IMG/VR virus record: IMGVR_UViG_2579778650_000007
Location: 1-4,832 of that record
Source: a virus
Taxonomy: Duplodnaviria; Heunggongvirae; Uroviricota; Caudoviricetes
Length of the DNA stretch: 4,832 nucleotides
Strand: one strand, 5' to 3'
In this document: piece after piece, positions 1-4,832 of the stretch
How positions within the stretch are numbered: position 1 is the stretch's first letter
How the letters are laid out: every line of letters starts with the position of its first letter
Notes under the pieces: generated by a model
The model's database searches: none
What the model saw: only the letters and a program-made list of their open reading frames with translations
What the model was told of the DNA's origin: nothing
Position numbers and translations under genes: made by a program

Positions 1-295
1 CGGTATCGTGGCAACGGCGGATGATGCGGACGCGAAGCTGTTCCCGCTGAACAAGCCCACACTGCTGACCCGCGTCAATGACGTGCTGGGAAAATGCGGA
101 ACAACGGGGACGCTTTATCGTGCGCTTAAGGCCATCGCAGACCAGGTGAGCACAAAGGTGATCGTCGTTCGCGTGGCTGAACACAAAGAAGAAGACGGAA
201 ATGGCAGTATATCGGGGCAGGCGATGATCGCATCGTGCTTTCTGGTGTGCTTTATCCTGAAATCACAGGTGGCGAAGTGTCGCTGTCGCTGCTGA
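1..295 (+). pseudogene. 5' fragment of a P2 gpFI-like tail sheath gene (frame 2, open to the window start; the true start lies upstream of the window). Sheath similarity ends near 200, after which the frame runs about 30 unrelated codons to a stop at 293-295.
   Basis: Frame-2 translation GIVATADDADAKLFPLNKPTLLTRVNDVLGKCGTTGTLYRALKAIADQVSTKVIVVRVAEHKEEDGNG resembles the N-terminal region of P2 tail sheath FI as I recall it (..DADAETFPLNKPVLITNV..GTL..LQAIADQ..). Only about 70 aa of a roughly 390-aa protein family are present. No search was run. Confidence 0.55.
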
Positions 296-573
296 CCACG
301 CAGGCGTATACAGGACGCCCCTGGCCTCTGATTGATGGCGTCGGACAGATTTACGGCATGTATGTACTGACTGAAACGAATACGACCCGCTCCGAGTTTG
401 ATCGCTACGGTAAGGCGAAAAAGATAGAATTTTCACTGACACTTGAACGCTGTGATGAGGATTTGCGGGAGCGCCTGCAATCCTCATCGTTCAGTGATAT
501 GCTGTCCGGCTTCAAAGATAAGGTCACATCATCCCTTAACAGCGCGGCCAGCTCCGTTAAAGGGCTGTTTTGA
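199..573 (+). pseudogene. 3' portion of a P2 gpU-like tail protein gene (frame 1). There is no in-frame ATG; the ORF track starts it at GTG 235, but the similarity begins upstream at about 199-205. It is joined out of frame to the sheath fragment.
   Basis: Frame-1 translation KWQYIGAGDDRIVLSGVLYPEITGG..WPLIDGVGQIYGMYVLTE..KKIEFSLTLERCDE matches my recollection of P2 gpU (..FQFLGVGEENITLAGVLYPELTGG..WPLLDGTGMIYGMYVI..RKIDFTLSLTRVDE). Frame 1 has stops at 178-180 and further upstream, so the N-terminal ~37 codons of a gpU are missing. Confidence 0.5.
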
Positions 574-580
574 TTAACGC

Positions 581-610
581 AAAACCGCTAATGGTCAGAT
601 TAGCGGTTTT
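581..610. terminator. Bidirectional intrinsic terminator between the convergent gpU-fragment and invertase genes
   Basis: Perfect inverted repeat AAAACCGCTAAT (581-592), loop GGTCAG, ATTAGCGGTTTT (599-610). It is followed by a T-rich run on the plus strand (CATTTTCC), and the stem itself ends in TTTT on either strand. The invertase stop codon (600-602, minus) lies inside the stem. Confidence 0.55.
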
Positions 611-1199
611 CATTTTCCTGAGTCTGCCTGGTTGTTTCTTCAGCCTGTATATCGCCTACAGGGTGATAACGATAAATCGTCGATATGCCGATGTCGTAAA
701 TGATCGCCAGTTGTTTCCTGTCATGACCGTTTTTAATCAGCCTCGCTATTTGCTCGTGTTGTTCTTTTGTCAACTTCGGGCGACGTCCGCCAATGCGTCC
801 TTGTGCGCGTGCTGCTGCCAGCCCGGCCAGTGTACGCTCTACAATTAATTCACGTTCCATTTCGGCTAAAGCTCCCATGACGTGAAAAAAGAAACGCCCC
901 ATGGGTGTTGATGTGTCAATGCTGTCCGTTAGACTACGGAAATTAACACCTTTTTCCCGCAATTCCTCAATAAGCGTGATCAGGTGTTTCATACTTCTGC
1001 CCAGTCTGTCCAGCTTCCAGACAACCAGCGTATCTCCTTCTGATAGCGTTCTGAGCAGTTTTTTCAATCCCGGTCTGGCTGATTTCGTTCCGCTGATTTT
1101 ATCTTCAAAAATCAGTTCACATCCTGCGCACTCCAGCGCGTTACGCTGCAATTCTGTATTCTGGTCATTTGTTGATACGCGGACATAGCCAATAAGCAT
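600..1199 (-). CDS. Serine-recombinase DNA invertase of the Gin/Pin/Cin/Hin family (199 aa)
   Basis: N-terminus MLIGYVRVSTNDQNTELQRNALECAGCELIFEDKISG..TLVVWKLDRLGRSMKHL..GVNFRSLTDSIDTSTPMGRFFFHVMGALAEMERELIVERT is near-identical to the resolvase/invertase catalytic domain, with the catalytic Ser at position 9. The C-terminus (GRRPKLTKEQHEQIARLIKNGHDRKQLAIIYDIGISTIYRY) is the HTH DNA-binding domain. A possible Shine-Dalgarno (AGGGGA) lies upstream of the ATG at 1197-1199. Confidence 0.93.
   Translation of the reverse strand: MLIGYVRVSTNDQNTELQRNALECAGCELIFEDKISGTKSARPGLKKLLRTLSEGDTLVVWKLDRLGRSMKHLITLIEELREKGVNFRSLTDSIDTSTPMGRFFFHVMGALAEMERELIVERTLAGLAAARAQGRIGGRRPKLTKEQHEQIARLIKNGHDRKQLAIIYDIGISTIYRYHPVGDIQAEETTRQTQENENR
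1125..1180. promoter_or_regulatory. Predicted Fis-dependent recombinational enhancer (sis-like) inside the 5' coding region of the invertase gene
   Basis: Placed by analogy only. In the Hin, Gin and Cin systems the enhancer lies within the first ~100-170 bp of the invertase gene. The minus-strand sequence here (GTATCAACAAATGACCAGAATACAGAATTGCAGCGTAACGCGCTGGAG) closely parallels the hin enhancer region as I recall it. Fis sites were not individually resolved. Confidence 0.3.
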
Positions 1200-1226
1200 G
1201 ATGGATCCCCTGAATAAAAACCGGGG

Positions 1227-1625
1227 ATGATGCCAGTTAGCCGTAATCTCTGCATTTTCTTAAACGTTGGTTTAGGAGAAGCGGCAAAACGGAATGTGGG
1301 CACAGGAGATAATCAGATACCGGATATGGGAGCATTCGCTTCTGGTTCGGGATGGTTCAGGCTACCAGGTGGATATATTGTTCAGTTTGGCACTTTTGCA
1401 GGAAACACGACCCGCTTTATCAGTGGACACTTCCCTATACCATTCCCTAATCAGCCGATGGTTTCAGTCAGTGTTATGTCTGATGCCGTTCAGTCAGACC
1501 CGTCGATTCCTGCCCCGCAGGTTTTGTCTGTAAATTTTGAACATATCAGTAATTCAGCGTGGCGTGTGGCAACCAGTGATATCTCACAGCAATACAGATT
1601 CAGTTATATTTCGATAGGACGGTAG
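1227..1625 (+). CDS. Alternative tail-fibre C-terminal cassette (Sv'-like), silent in the present orientation. The functional part is 1281..1625 (114 aa after the shared GLGE); the ATG at 1227 probably only opens the frame.
   Basis: The translation carries ..NVGLGE immediately followed by a divergent C-terminal domain (AAKRNVGTGDNQ..YRFSYISIGR). GLGE is encoded exactly on the crossover site and is shared with the tail fibre at aa 379-382. The stop at 1623-1625 is 2 nt before the start of the downstream chaperone gene. Confidence 0.7.
   Translation: MMPVSRNLCIFLNVGLGEAAKRNVGTGDNQIPDMGAFASGSGWFRLPGGYIVQFGTFAGNTTRFISGHFPIPFPNQPMVSVSVMSDAVQSDPSIPAPQVLSVNFEHISNSAWRVATSDISQQYRFSYISIGR
1255..1280. 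other. Invertase crossover site, invertase-proximal (gix/pix-like, 26 bp, central dinucleotide TT at 1267-1268)
   Basis: TTTTCTTAAACG TT GGTTTAGGAGAA. The inner half-site (rc TTCTCCTAAACC) fits the invertase half-site consensus TTATCnAAAACC. It lies about 55 bp upstream of the invertase start and overlaps the codons V-G-L-G-E of the plus-strand cassette. Confidence 0.75.
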
Positions 1626-1627
1626 AA

Positions 1628-2068
1628 ATGCAGAAATATATTTTCAGTGCCGATAAAAATGCGTTTTTCCCTGTGGAGCTTAAAATCGCTTATCAGGAAT
1701 CCGGCGAATGGCCCGATGATGGAATCGAAATTGACGACACTGTTGCTGCCGAATTTATGAAGGAAGCACCAGAAGGAAAATACAGAGGTGTCATCGACGG
1801 AATGCCTGCATGGATTGATATTCCACCGCCAACTCATGAGGAACAAATTGCCGCAGCCGAACTGAAAAAGCAGCAATTGATTAATCAGGTCAACGAATAC
1901 ATAAACAGTAAGCAATGGCCTGGTAAAGCGGCGATTGGTCGCCTGAAAGGTGAGGAACTGGTGCAATATAATTTGTGGCTGGATTATCTGGACGCACTGG
2001 AACTGGTCGATACTTCCGGTGCGCCAGATATTGAATGGCCTACGCCTCCGGCAGTTCAGGCCAGATGA
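1628..2068 (+). CDS. Tail-fibre assembly chaperone (Tfa/gpG/U'-like, 146 aa), cognate to the alternative cassette
   Basis: ATG at 1628 preceded by AGGACGG. The C-terminus VDTSGAPDIEWPTPP has the conserved Tfa motif DTSxAPDIEWP. It lies inside the invertible segment and is co-oriented with the alternative cassette. Confidence 0.85.
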   Translation: MQKYIFSADKNAFFPVELKIAYQESGEWPDDGIEIDDTVAAEFMKEAPEGKYRGVIDGMPAWIDIPPPTHEEQIAAAELKKQQLINQVNEYINSKQWPGKAAIGRLKGEELVQYNLWLDYLDALELVDTSGAPDIEWPTPPAVQAR

Positions 2069-2633
2069 CATCCGGTGCGGTGCTGGTATCTGTTGCCGTC
2101 ACCGCGTCAATATAATCCAGCACAGCGTTAAGTCGGGTGTTTTCTGGCTGCGTCAGCTTCCGCACGGCCTGTAATTTCAGTTGAATCAGACTGATGGAAG
2201 CCATTGCAGCATCAATCAGCGACTGGCGCTTTACTTCTGCCGCGTCTAGTGCGGCGCTATGCTGTGCCTCGGTATCCGTCACCCATTTCTCACCATCCCA
2301 TTTATCGTATGGCGTTAACGGTGAAAGCGTGACATAACCGTCTTTGATGGCACCGATATAATCCACTGTAACAGCTGCGCCATTTTCGATTGAGTAAACA
2401 GTCTCATTGCGGTGGTCTTCTTCATGGCTCCATCCCTTACCCGTAAATACTGCCACTCTTCCCGGAATGTATTCGCCCGGGTCAATACCAGTGGAACAAG
2501 CGGGCATACTTACGCCAGTATTAATATATTCATCAGACCAGCCAGTATATTCATACGTAACTGCCTCATAATAAAAACAACGCATATTACCCGGTACTGT
2601 AGCCAGCCCATTTTCATCAAAAACAGGTTTCAT
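2040..2633 (-). CDS. Tail-fibre assembly chaperone (Tfa/P2 gpG/Mu U-like, 197 aa), cognate to the currently expressed fibre tip
   Basis: The C-terminus VTATDTSTAPDVIWPELPEA has the Tfa motif. Its start codon overlaps the tail-fibre stop (TAATG at 2631-2635 on the minus strand), suggesting translational coupling. The central part (GKGWSHEEDHRNETVY..DKWDGEKWVTDTEAQ) resembles lambda/P2-type Tfa proteins. Confidence 0.88.
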   Translation of the reverse strand: MKPVFDENGLATVPGNMRCFYYEAVTYEYTGWSDEYINTGVSMPACSTGIDPGEYIPGRVAVFTGKGWSHEEDHRNETVYSIENGAAVTVDYIGAIKDGYVTLSPLTPYDKWDGEKWVTDTEAQHSAALDAAEVKRQSLIDAAMASISLIQLKLQAVRKLTQPENTRLNAVLDYIDAVTATDTSTAPDVIWPELPEA

Positions 2634-4297
2634 TATTTAGCCCTCACTAGAAAGTTAAATGCAATATTTCGTGGGCGGGTTTCTGTACCTACATTTCCAC
2701 TAATTTCACCATAACGTTTAACGCTACGAGAGCTAATAGCTCGTAGTGAGGAAGGCACCCTAAGACCGGGTTCGTCCGTTTTAACTATTCCCCCGTCACC
2801 ATATGTAGCCAGTATTCCTGGGTTGACTCCTTCCCGTGTACTTCCTGCGACAAGCCCGTCCCCCGTCCACAATTCCATATTGTGTGCATGATCCATAATT
2901 GTGTGTGATTGCCCTGAAAGTAGGGTACGTCCGACATCAATCCCGCGTCCGTCATCCCAGATACGAATGAAATCACCGCGTGCGTCAGGTAATGCCAGCG
3001 CCGGAAACACTTTCGCCAGCACAGGGTAATCAGTGGCAGAGAATTTCGCGCCGTTGAACTTCAAAAACACCATGCTGGACCAGCTATCGATTACGGTATC
3101 TGGCATTGCTGCGGACGGCCAGAAGAACGGAACGCCAATAGCTGGAGCACCTTCTCCCAAACCAAGGTAATCAAGAACTCCCTGAGTGCTGGTTTTACCA
3201 AGAATGGCACGTCCAACACTTGTCAACGCGGTTAACGCGGCACGATCTGCCCCTGTAAAATATGGGAGTTTATCTGCTGATGTAGCAAGCTCCGCCAGCG
3301 CCGTCAGGGTGGCATCCTTCGGTTGCTTACCCGCAAGCGCGTTAGTCATGGTGGTCGCAAAATTCGGGTCATTGCCCAGCGCCGCAGCCAGTTCGTTCAG
3401 CGTGTTCAGTGCATCAGGTGACGAATCTACAAGTGCGGCAATCGCAGCCATAACGAAAGCCGTGCTTGCGATCTGGGTACTATTAGTCCCCTGTGGCGCT
3501 GTTGGTGTTGTTGGCGTTCCGGTCAGTGCCGGGCTGTTTAATGGTGCTTTCTTGTTCGTTTCATCCATTACCGCCTTAACAGCTTTTGGTGTCGCTGCCA
3601 GCGTTTCAGACGTGCTGTTCGTGGCGCTACTGAGCTGAACAATCCCTTTTTGTGTAGTGGTGGCGTTCTGGGCGGTATATTTCCCGTTAGCCAGGTCATA
3701 TGCAGCCTTAACCGCTTTCGGTGTTGCGGCCAGTGTTTCTGATTCACTGTTAATTGCACTGCTTAACTGAGTAAAACCTTTTACGGTCAGCGAGGCGTCC
3801 GGGTGACGTCGTGACTGTTCGTGCTCTGATATTTTATCATCCACATATTTGCGGGTTGCCAGAACCACAGACGGGTCGATTTTCAGCGTGATAGCTTCGG
3901 TGTTCGTGACAACCAGAATCATGCGGATAGTCTGGGTGCGTCCACTGCCTTCCTGCAACTGCGGTTTGTACGTTTCCGGGCAGTTTGCCACCGCAATGAG
4001 TACACCTTCATCATCATAAAGACCAATCTCACGGATCCAGAATCCTCCCTCGTTTTCAGGGATGATTTGCTCCGCAATAATCTGGCTCTGATTGTTAGGG
4101 TCAACACTCAGAAGATTCAGCGGTGCAATGCGTTTCTGGTTAATCAGTTTTGTTTGTGCAGGGTCTGGTGTTGGTAACACACCATTTGCATCACCAACGG
4201 CCATTTGCGTCAGATTCAGCTTACTGCCGAGCATCGTCGCGTTAGCCAGTCGTGCCGCGCCCTGATTAGTCAGAATGGCGTAGTATTTCACTGTCAT
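2633..4297 (-). CDS. Tail fibre protein, P2 gpH-like (554 aa): constant N-terminal part aa 1-382 (coded at 3152..4297), variable C-terminal receptor-binding part aa 383-554 (coded at 2636..3151, inside the invertible segment)
   Basis: N-terminus (..MAVGDANGVLPTPDP..GGFWIREIGLYDDEGVLIAVAN..YKPQLQEGSGR) and the paired shaft repeats QLSSA(I/T)NS(E/T)SETLAATPKAVKA match my recollection of P2 gpH. The start overlaps the gpI-like stop (ATGA at 4294-4297). Confidence 0.93.
   Translation of the reverse strand: MTVKYYAILTNQGAARLANATMLGSKLNLTQMAVGDANGVLPTPDPAQTKLINQKRIAPLNLLSVDPNNQSQIIAEQIIPENEGGFWIREIGLYDDEGVLIAVANCPETYKPQLQEGSGRTQTIRMILVVTNTEAITLKIDPSVVLATRKYVDDKISEHEQSRRHPDASLTVKGFTQLSSAINSESETLAATPKAVKAAYDLANGKYTAQNATTTQKGIVQLSSATNSTSETLAATPKAVKAVMDETNKKAPLNSPALTGTPTTPTAPQGTNSTQIASTAFVMAAIAALVDSSPDALNTLNELAAALGNDPNFATTMTNALAGKQPKDATLTALAELATSADKLPYFTGADRAALTALTSVGRAILGKTSTQGVLDYLGLGEGAPAIGVPFFWPSAAMPDTVIDSWSSMVFLKFNGAKFSATDYPVLAKVFPALALPDARGDFIRIWDDGRGIDVGRTLLSGQSHTIMDHAHNMELWTGDGLVAGSTREGVNPGILATYGDGGIVKTDEPGLRVPSSLRAISSRSVKRYGEISGNVGTETRPRNIAFNFLVRAK
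3152..3177. other. Invertase crossover site, distal (gix/pix-like, 26 bp, central AA at 3164-3165), located inside the tail-fibre gene
   Basis: TTCTCCCAAACC AA GGTAATCAAGAA. Positions 3152-3165 match the reverse complement of 1267-1280 at 13 of 14 positions. The site encodes L-G-L-G-E (aa 378-382) of the fibre. Confidence 0.75.
3572..3772. repeat. Tandem direct repeat (two copies of about 69 bp, 132 bp apart) encoding the fibre shaft repeat QLSSAxNSxSETLAATPKAVKA
   Basis: 3704-3772 and 3572-3640 encode aa 176-198 and aa 220-242 of the tail fibre and are visibly similar at the DNA level (GCCTTAAC.GCTTT.GGTGT.GC.GCCAG.GTTTC.GA..). Confidence 0.6.
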
Positions 4298-4832
4298 GCG
4301 TTTACTCTCAGATTATCAATTAAATGAATGGCCGGGGCAGGGAAATAATCCCCTTCGACAATAATGGACTCCGGGGTGTAGGGATAAACCGTCAGGGCAT
4401 CGCCGTGATAGCATCCCGTACCAACGAAAATCTTTCCGTTCACACTCAGGCTGATCGCCAGCCCCGTCAGATGGCGACTTACTGGTTTTGCATCCGCAAT
4501 AAGGCGCTCAAGTTCCTGATACATTTCATCGGTGATGCCCTGATCAAGTACTCCGACAACAATGCGAAATGTTCCCGGCTCCTCGTTGAGTTGCCACCAC
4601 TCCTTTACTTCAATCAGGTAGCCGAGAGGCTCCACGGCTCTTCGCAGTGCGCTGATGGTCCCTTTGTGTCGGTGTATCAGCCATGCATCACGAATCACCT
4701 GTCGCTTTGTCTCTTCCGGCCAGTTGCGATCCCAGTGGTCAACGGAAAATGCCCAGGCGAGATAAGGCAGCAGATGCACCGGGCAGGTGTCCGGCGACCA
4801 CAGCGTGTTGAGGTCTACCGGGATGTCTGTAA
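4294..4832 (-). CDS. Baseplate protein, P2 gpI-like; 5'-partial, the gene continues beyond the window end
   Basis: The frame is open from 4832 with no stop. The translation ..IPVDLNTLWSPDTCPVHLLPYLAWAFSVDHWDRNWPEETKRQVIRDAWLIHRHKGTISALRRAVEPLGYLIEVKEWW.. matches my recollection of P2 gpI (..LLPWLAWAFSVDRWDEKWPEATKRAVIRDAYFIHCHKGTIGAIRRVVEPLGYLINVTEWW..). The GTG at 4779 used by the ORF track is internal. Confidence 0.88.
   Translation of the reverse strand, partial: TDIPVDLNTLWSPDTCPVHLLPYLAWAFSVDHWDRNWPEETKRQVIRDAWLIHRHKGTISALRRAVEPLGYLIEVKEWWQLNEEPGTFRIVVGVLDQGITDEMYQELERLIADAKPVSRHLTGLAISLSVNGKIFVGTGCYHGDALTVYPYTPESIIVEGDYFPAPAIHLIDNLRVNA

Follow-up and report, generated by a model that had tools for sequence, protein, structure and literature searches.

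A clone-specific deletion joins tail-sheath and gpU gene fragments out of frame in a P2-like prophage of O111 EPEC

The window, by which we mean the whole stretch of 4,832 nucleotides that was analysed, carries near its left end a real, clone-specific deletion junction, at which the 5′ part of a tail-sheath gene runs directly into the 3′ part of a gpU-like gene. This is very probably the scar of ordinary prophage decay in a Xuanwuvirus/Gemsvirus-type P2-like prophage (Peduoviridae) of an O111 EPEC2 sublineage, and, as a private deletion in a well-known prophage group, it adds one more case to a familiar class of events. The window is the entire contig JICC01000160.1 of assembly GCA_000691025.1, and its ends fall inside the sheath gene and gpI. 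S6662, the source isolate, came from a child in Kenya and belongs to typical EPEC, with serogroup O111, phylogroup B1 and the EPEC2 lineage; its draft genome was assembled from Illumina reads with the short-read assembler Velvet (PMC4056304). Breakpoints were mapped on an intact prophage of E. coli O111:H2 strain 12A (reference L001). The junction was searched for in 5,426 complete E. coli genomes, GTDB species representatives, IMG/VR and JGI metagenomes, and the material compared included a 6.7-kb ENA metagenome scaffold (L002; ERZ28565781 / SAMEA6085509) and contigs of the sister isolates S7380 and S5274 (L004 and L005). The features at the left end of the window are as follows, a slash marking the join.

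1–201, + strand: tail-sheath (P2 FI-like) gene, 5′ fragment, nt 87–287 of the 1185-nt gene, window frame 2 (Pfam PF22671)
2–295, + strand: truncated sheath reading frame, with 66 sheath codons in the window (30–95; 95 in the full locus) and a TGA stop at 293–295
201/202, + strand: deletion junction GACGGAAA/TGGCAGTA, blunt and without microhomology (0 nt); intact relatives have 4,917 bp more at this point
202–573, + strand: gpU-like tail gene, 3′ fragment, nt 118–489, codons 40–162 and the stop, window frame 1 (Pfam PF06995)
581–610, no strand: 12-bp perfect hairpin, found as an inverted repeat and also in a terminator scan, between the convergent U and invertase genes

On six-frame inspection, the sheath-like frame 2 is open from the start of the contig to the TGA, and the gpU-like frame 1 closes at 573. 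To the left of the junction, frame 2 (nt 2–201) aligns with residues 29–91 of P2 FI at 51% identity (E 2e-18) and matches the Pfam domain Gp18_domIII_N (PF22671, E 9.8e-12), and these two similarities, to P2 FI and to the N-terminal domain profile, place it in the sheath family. Many E. coli genomes have annotated sheath genes that match positions 1–201 at 100% DNA identity, and full-length close copies of the gene occur in about a quarter of the complete genomes (1,376 of 5,426). The stub maps to positions 6883–7083 of L001, where the retained sheath sequence stops at nt 287 of 1185, after 95 codons and 2 nt. The first 86 nt of the gene are absent from the window, as the contig begins within the gene, and are present in scaffold L002. 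Past codon 95, the junction codon is changed from AAG to AAT and is followed by 30 out-of-frame codons from gpU DNA; the 126-aa product of the stub is called whole at 1916–2296 of L002. Of a complete coding sequence of about 394 aa, able to form a sheath, codons 1–95 alone are left in the locus.

Frame 1, read from about nt 190 onward to 573, aligns with residues 36–127 of P2 gpU at 48% identity (E 4e-32), and the fragment matches Pfam Phage_P2_GpU (PF06995) over profile positions 35–120 of 120 (E 8.6e-26), its 90.4 bits lying well above the gathering cut-off of 27.5. Positions 202–573 map to 12001–12372 of L001 with 99.7% identity, and the first gpU base retained, nt 118 of 489, is the first base of codon 40. 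The native ATG and the 39 N-terminal residues are deleted, and the sole in-frame start within the fragment is a GTG at 235, from which gene callers derive a 112-aa product. In place of a D gene, the U fragment is followed by the hairpin at 581–610, whose right arm overlaps the stop region of the invertase gene and which probably serves as a bidirectional intrinsic terminator, and then by the 3′ end of the invertase gene itself. We regard both the sheath stub and the U fragment as non-functional debris, the former because of the out-of-frame sequence at its end and the latter because of the loss of its start codon and N-terminal residues.

The position of the join is exact. Among the 5,426 complete E. 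coli genomes, all top-ranked long matches to the rest of the window begin precisely at nt 202. Matches that extend to nt 207–210 in some genomes are alignment run-on, and the case of KSC9 arises from a 1-nt deletion. The two breakpoints lie 4,917 bp apart in the 12A prophage, and the prophage of FRIK944 (O157:H7) gives an equal figure. The missing interval takes in the remaining 76% of the sheath gene, all of the tube, E/E′ and 2.8-kb tape-measure genes, and U codons 1–39. Because the sheath and U genes are read in different frames at the junction, the fusion is out of frame. The parental sequences, read in five relatives, are GACGGAAA/GACGCAGG for the sheath gene and CAGCAAGC/TGGCAGTA for gpU; KSC9, one of these five, is 1 nt short at the sheath-side breakpoint, which frameshifts its own sheath gene. 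With the parental breakpoints aligned across these five relatives, 0 nt at the join are common to both parents, and microhomology or slippage is rejected as the means of joining. IS-mediated deletion is rejected as well, since the junction has no IS sequence or terminal repeat and nothing is inserted. An imperfect inverted repeat (202–226 versus 2431–2455, 76%) begins at the junction base, which we judge to be a coincidence, as its left arm belongs to gpU itself and runs on unbroken in intact relatives. The initial annotation, which had read an FI-like frame 2 up to about nt 200 and the C-terminal part of a gpU in frame 1 from there, is thus borne out well beyond chance, the breakpoint it had placed near 197–205 falling at 201/202; its proposed deletion of most of FI, all of FII, E and T, and the start of U agrees with the interval found, to which the loss of E′ is to be added.

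By exact-protein look-up, the 112-aa U fragment is carried by six contigs, among them the window contig, two contigs of sister isolates (GCA_000691045.1, JICD, isolate S7380; GCA_000691005.1, JICB, isolate S5274, O111) and the ENA scaffold. Every contig fetched, that is, S6662, S7380, S5274 and the metagenome scaffold, has the identical junction, in four separate assemblies. The scaffold differs from the window by 1 base in 4,718 and supplies 2 kb of upstream context, in which the hok side and ogr are present together with the start of the sheath gene and, on the opposite strand, a D gene of 369 aa. A literature search on this scaffold turned up nothing. The carriers of the junction are 3 of the 5 Kenyan EPEC2 isolates of one study (PMC4056304) and one metagenome. 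When the locus is compared across related strains, the junction is present in S6662, S7380 and S5274 and in none of the 5,426 complete E. coli genomes, and it was not found in the GTDB species representatives, IMG/VR or JGI metagenomes. Being shared by sister isolates and a metagenome and absent from the genome and metagenome collections searched, the junction is a derived deletion specific to one clone.

Within the window, the sheath and U fragments lie on the + strand, whereas the invertase, G, H and I genes lie on the − strand. In intact relatives, ogr and D are on one strand and sheath-tube-E-T-U on the other, and the end of U lies 27–36 nt from the end of the convergent invertase gene. 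We see this layout in the two 12A prophages, O157:H7 FRIK944 (whose prophage of this type adjoins ihfA), KSC9, Gemsvirus 500465-2 and the Citrobacter phage phiSM (Xuanwuvirus). Both phiSM (PMC6456863) and its relative P88 (PMC5285337) are reported as active, plaque-forming phages. The convergent layout, being common to all relatives examined, with phiSM and P88 reported active, is the working architecture of Xuanwuvirus/Gemsvirus-type P2-like phages and not a further lesion. The window's element belongs to this group by its near-identity to classified members and by its convergent layout, with ogr and D 5′ of the sheath stub in scaffold L002. It falls short of the gene set of a viable phage of the group, as the tube, E/E′ and tape-measure genes are gone and the sheath and U genes are truncated. 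Two statements of the initial annotation are therefore correct as descriptions and mistaken as evidence of rearrangement, namely that sheath and U run opposite to I-H-G, which is standard in the intact relatives, and that no gpD follows gpU, since D lies 5′ of the sheath gene on the other strand. The order FI-FII-E-T-U-D, which it gives for P2, does agree with the annotation of P2, where these genes are colinear on one strand. We note that P2 is the wrong gene-order reference here, and that neither an 'inverted FI-U block' nor 'no D after U' ought to be counted as a rearrangement in phages of this group.

Orthology to a particular 12A prophage is close on both sides of the junction. Prophage 1 of 12A, the copy adjoining raiA (NZ_CP077479.1, 1.34–1.37 Mb), is 100% identical in the intergenic region, 99.7% in the sheath stub and 99.7% in the U fragment, and right of the U fragment the identity is 99.9–100%. 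Over window positions 202–4832, the two differ at 5 bases (99.9% identity). The remainder of the window forms a fibre and invertase module with the following features.

600–1199, − strand: Gin-like serine DNA invertase, 199 aa, intact (Pfam Resolvase, PF00239, and HTH_7, PF02796)
1227–1625, + strand: alternative fibre C-terminal cassette, from the ORF list and Pfam Gp53-like_C, unjoined to H in the present orientation
1255–1280, no strand: left crossover site TTTTCTTAAACG-TT-GGTTTAGGAGAA, identified by its inverted match to 3152–3177 and by recombinant half-sites in L004 and L005
1628–2068, + strand: tail-fibre assembly gene, partner of the alternative cassette (Pfam Caudo_TAP, E 9e-34)
2040–2633, − strand: tail-fibre assembly gene (P2 G-like), partner of the fibre tip now in the expressed orientation (Pfam Caudo_TAP, E 1.5e-24)
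2633–4297, − strand: tail-fibre gene (P2 H-like), 554 aa, intact (Pfam Phage_tail_fib and Phage_fiber_2)
3152–3177, no strand: right crossover site, within the H gene, TTCTCCCAAACC-AA-GGTAATCAAGAA, identified by its inverted match and by recombinant half-sites
4294–4832, − strand: gpI-like baseplate gene, cut by the contig end (Pfam Tail_P2_I, E 6e-48)

The reading frames of the invertase, H, the two assembly proteins and the alternative fibre tip are all full length. Among solved structures, the DNA-invertase chains 4m6f and 3uj3, which we take to be phage Mu Gin, match the invertase with E values of about 1e-91, and the protein has the features of the Din family, i.e., a resolvase catalytic domain, a C-terminal HTH and relatedness to Gin. 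The two crossover sites are inverted, 26 bp long, share the central dinucleotide AA/TT and lie within the LGLGE-coding stretch of both fibre versions; the invertible segment between them is 1269–3163. The homology of the alternative cassette begins at the left site, and the portion of the H gene 3′ of the right site falls in the invertible segment. The contig of S5274 runs from the left flank through a recombinant site into the far end of the segment, reversed. That of S7380 has the un-flipped left junction together with the flipped junction at the other end. In both contigs the exchange of half-sites falls at the central dinucleotide or beside it. The sites have 15 nt alone in common, which is below usual assembly k-mers, and the flipped junctions are for that reason taken as real molecules. 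With two inverted 26-bp sites, an equal central dinucleotide and both orientations seen, the segment has the make-up of a Din-family switch, and, judging from these contigs, its inversion is continuing in isolates bearing the tail deletion. For P2-like prophages of EPEC, phase variation of fibre segments has been described previously (PMC4272514).

In the annotation of P2, E, E′, T and U are essential tail proteins, and FI and FII are the sheath and tube proteins. With genes essential for the P2 tail lost, the element cannot make tails and would be expected to form no infectious virions; the S6662 prophage is presumably intact otherwise, in a contig whose view ends in the sheath gene and gpI. 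In the mechanism that we favour, one event of illegitimate recombination within a single prophage would have made the sheath::U join, and by elimination this event would have been independent of homology. A microhomology-free join is less usual in E. coli than a microhomology-mediated deletion. The event would also have been recent, which would account for the intact state of the fibre and invertase module beside it and for the continued inversion of the segment. Over the module (nt 574–4832), the window differs from the intact prophage at 4 of 4,259 bases, and with so little divergence the intactness of the module is what a recent deletion predicts and is no evidence of selection. The initial annotation had offered either a defective prophage with an intact fibre and invertase module, or a module retained for another use such as a tailocin or a donated receptor-binding unit. 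The former is supported. A tailocin is excluded for this element, as the sheath, tube and tape-measure genes are those deleted, leaving incomplete the set of intact sheath, tube, tape-measure and baseplate genes that marks the R type. The donated unit is not needed as an explanation, because a module with so few base differences has had no time for decay.

Among the other readings weighed, it is improbable that the join arose by illegitimate recombination between two co-resident P2-like prophages, the junction then being one end of a large chromosomal inversion or deletion. Strain 12A, the closest complete genome, shows that such prophages can co-reside, for three places in its genome match the sheath gene and at least two full prophages lie in opposite orientation about 300 kb apart; the invertase and fibre of its prophage 2 differ from those of the window. 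In addition, the D gene left of the junction, in scaffold L002, is 99.6% identical to prophage 2 and 97.0% to prophage 1, whereas the right side is 99.9–100% identical to prophage 1, and measured by identity the element is a mosaic, its left D gene nearer prophage 2 and its right side nearer prophage 1. However, the 440 nt that directly adjoin the junction on its left (intergenic region and sheath stub) have 1 mismatch to each prophage, with 3 end bases unaligned for prophage 1, and the D patch is equally well explained by homologous exchange between prophages. The known rearrangements between prophages use homology, whereas the positions joined here are non-homologous and have no bases in common; a local deletion, as one event, is more parsimonious. 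In the simplest reading, an orthologue of prophage 1 would have gained the D-gene patch by homologous exchange and, separately, lost the 4,917 bp. We consider it harder still to believe that the tail-less element has been selected as a store or donor of receptor-binding fibre cassettes or invertase activity for co-resident P2-like phages, or that the fusion products are functional. The same low credence attaches to the proposal that the EPEC clone keeps the remnant for the benefit of intact P2-like prophages, either as a phase-variable reserve of receptor-binding fibre cassettes or as a supplier of fibre and chaperone proteins; if it were true, co-resident intact prophages would widen their host range through the remnant, by recombination or in trans. 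A reservoir would fit the intact fibre, chaperone and invertase frames, the persistence of inversion in deletion-carrying strains and the likely presence of co-resident relatives, given the three sheath-gene places of 12A, and it has a precedent in C. rodentium, where a genetic reservoir role has been suggested for a defective phiSM-like prophage (PMC6456863). At 4 of 4,259 bases from the intact prophage, however, the intactness of the module is uninformative on selection, and the deletion is found in one small clone only. As for functional fusion products, the stub of the sheath gene runs out in nonsense codons, and the U fragment is without a start and 39 N-terminal residues.

The remaining two explanations are scarcely credible. 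An assembly chimera might be suspected in a Velvet short-read draft whose contig is just 4.8 kb long (PMC4056304), but three isolates share the identical junction with an independently assembled scaffold that has 2 kb of upstream context, and there is no parental repeat at the join to cause a misjoin. Because the parents share no sequence there, a k-mer (de Bruijn) assembler has no repeat on which to misjoin, and the reads must carry the junction. Nor can a sequencing indel have split a single intact gene across positions 1–573, as the initial annotation had allowed, for the two sides are different genes, 4.9 kb apart in the intact relatives, and no small indel can restore one frame. Deletion of the interval by the Gin-like invertase itself, acting on two pseudo-crossover sites in direct orientation, can likewise be given almost no weight. 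It is suggested by the active serine invertase encoded 27 nt downstream of U, and by the related recombinase Cin, which can act on quasi-sites. Serine invertases, however, exchange strands at a 2-nt central overlap that is necessarily equal in both sites, and no dinucleotide is common at or across the junction (AAA/GA on the sheath side, AGC/TG on the gpU side); moreover, neither breakpoint resembles the form TTCTCCCAAACC-AA-GGT of the real crossover sites. A single local deletion in one decaying prophage is left as the reading that we prefer.

Read in this way, the junction GACGGAAA/TGGCAGTA offers an exact, PCR-testable clonal marker for the Kenyan O111 EPEC2 sublineage, and a clean example of a very recent, microhomology-free deletion inactivating the tail operon of a prophage. 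A mildly useful point is that a Gin-like fibre switch still flips in a prophage unable to make tails, which is the expected first stage toward remnants such as e14. Otherwise the finding matters little beyond bookkeeping.

Compared with the intact prophages and phages of its group (12A, FRIK944, P88 and phiSM), the window's element is alike in gene content and layout, including the Gin-like invertase, the invertible fibre segment and G, H and I, and differs in having lost 4,917 bp, sheath nt 288 through gpU nt 117. The likeness to P2 is more distant: the retained parts of FI and U are 51% and 48% identical, respectively, and I, H and G are of the same families. In P2, the order I-H-G-fun(Z)-FI-FII-E-T-U-D-ogr runs all on one strand, with D directly after U and no invertase, whereas the window's phage group has an in-place inversion of the FI-to-U block and, in the position occupied by fun(Z), an invertase accompanied by a flip-flop fibre segment. 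The switch itself resembles the G-segment of Mu with Gin, the C-segment of P1 with Cin and the P-segment of e14 with Pin, in its Gin-like invertase, its 26-bp inverted sites, its two fibre C-termini, each with an assembly gene of its own, and its observed inversion. Unlike those switches, it is placed in a P2-type tail cluster, which gives the deletion its context. Among decayed prophages, the nearest counterparts are e14 of E. coli K-12 (pinE with stfE/ycfK), whose invertase still flips a fibre segment (PMC4272514), and CRPr20 of C. rodentium, in which a deletion adjoins the invertase gene (PMC6456863). Both of these are old or extensively deleted, whereas the element in the window appears to have undergone a single recent deletion, confined to one clone.

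The fibre segment of the prophage, about 1.9 kb long, lies between two crossover sites in inverted orientation:

Window 1255-1280, 26-bp crossover site, central AA/TT
Window 3152-3177, 26-bp crossover site, inverted relative to the first, central AA/TT

Both orientations of this segment are found among the three sister isolates, and the S7380 culture itself appears to be mixed for orientation. Recombinant crossover sites are present in the contigs of S7380 (L004, 3147-3222) and S5274 (L005, 1132-1197), each of which stops 50-60 nt beyond the recombinant site. Because these sites have exchanged their half-sites at the central dinucleotide, the Gin-like switch remains active in a prophage that is tail-less. 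Within the invertible segment sit two convergent tail-fibre assembly genes, at 1628-2068 (+) and 2040-2633 (-), whose 3' ends overlap by 29 nt on opposite strands and whose products resemble each other at the C-terminus, where they read DIEWPTPP and DVIWPELP.

Between the U and invertase genes, which are likewise convergent, lies a further element:

Window 581-610, 12-bp hairpin, perfectly paired and flanked on either side by A/T runs

The hairpin overlaps the invertase stop and looks like a bidirectional terminator common to both genes. One arm of a second, imperfect inverted repeat (202-226 versus 2431-2455; 25 nt, of which 9 nt are exact, with 76% complementarity overall) begins precisely at the first base past the deletion junction. 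This match with the junction was judged a coincidence, because intact relatives have the arm as part of their native gpU sequence. E. coli KSC9 (L009, 4938-6120) has an annotated frameshift in its copy of the sheath gene: it lacks one base precisely where the deletion in the window begins (GGAAA-ACGCAGG versus GGAAAGACGCAGG). The gap may reflect misreading of a homopolymer during sequencing, or else a lesion that arose there independently.

The D gene, carried upstream of the sheath stub by the metagenome scaffold (L002), was compared with its counterparts in two prophages of E. coli 12A:

L002 650-1759, D gene of the scaffold
L001 5530-6639, D gene of the first 12A prophage
L011 14651-15760, D gene of the second prophage of 12A, which sits at the flk locus

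It is 97.0% identical to the first and 99.6% identical to the second, and the remainder of the element is 99.7-100% identical to the first, a mosaic pattern that suggests homologous exchange among co-resident P2-like prophages. PGAP calls D in L001 (5530-6383) as 266 aa plus a pseudo-fragment, yet a 369-aa open reading frame aligns over its full length.

The public records of two relatives also show problems of annotation. That of 'Escherichia phage 500465-2' (NC_049343.1, 1-6400) contains the host genes mnmC, fabB and flk, and therefore represents a prophage region by prediction rather than the genome of a virion. In that of Citrobacter phage phiSM (OR565851.1, 2294-4745), the D-like gene is labelled 'ogr', and the sheath gene is labelled 'late control gene D protein'. 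The phiSM virions were described as Siphoviridae with long non-contractile tails (PMC6456863), a description in disagreement with the genome record, which is assigned to Peduoviridae and has genes for sheath, tube and baseplate of the P2 type.
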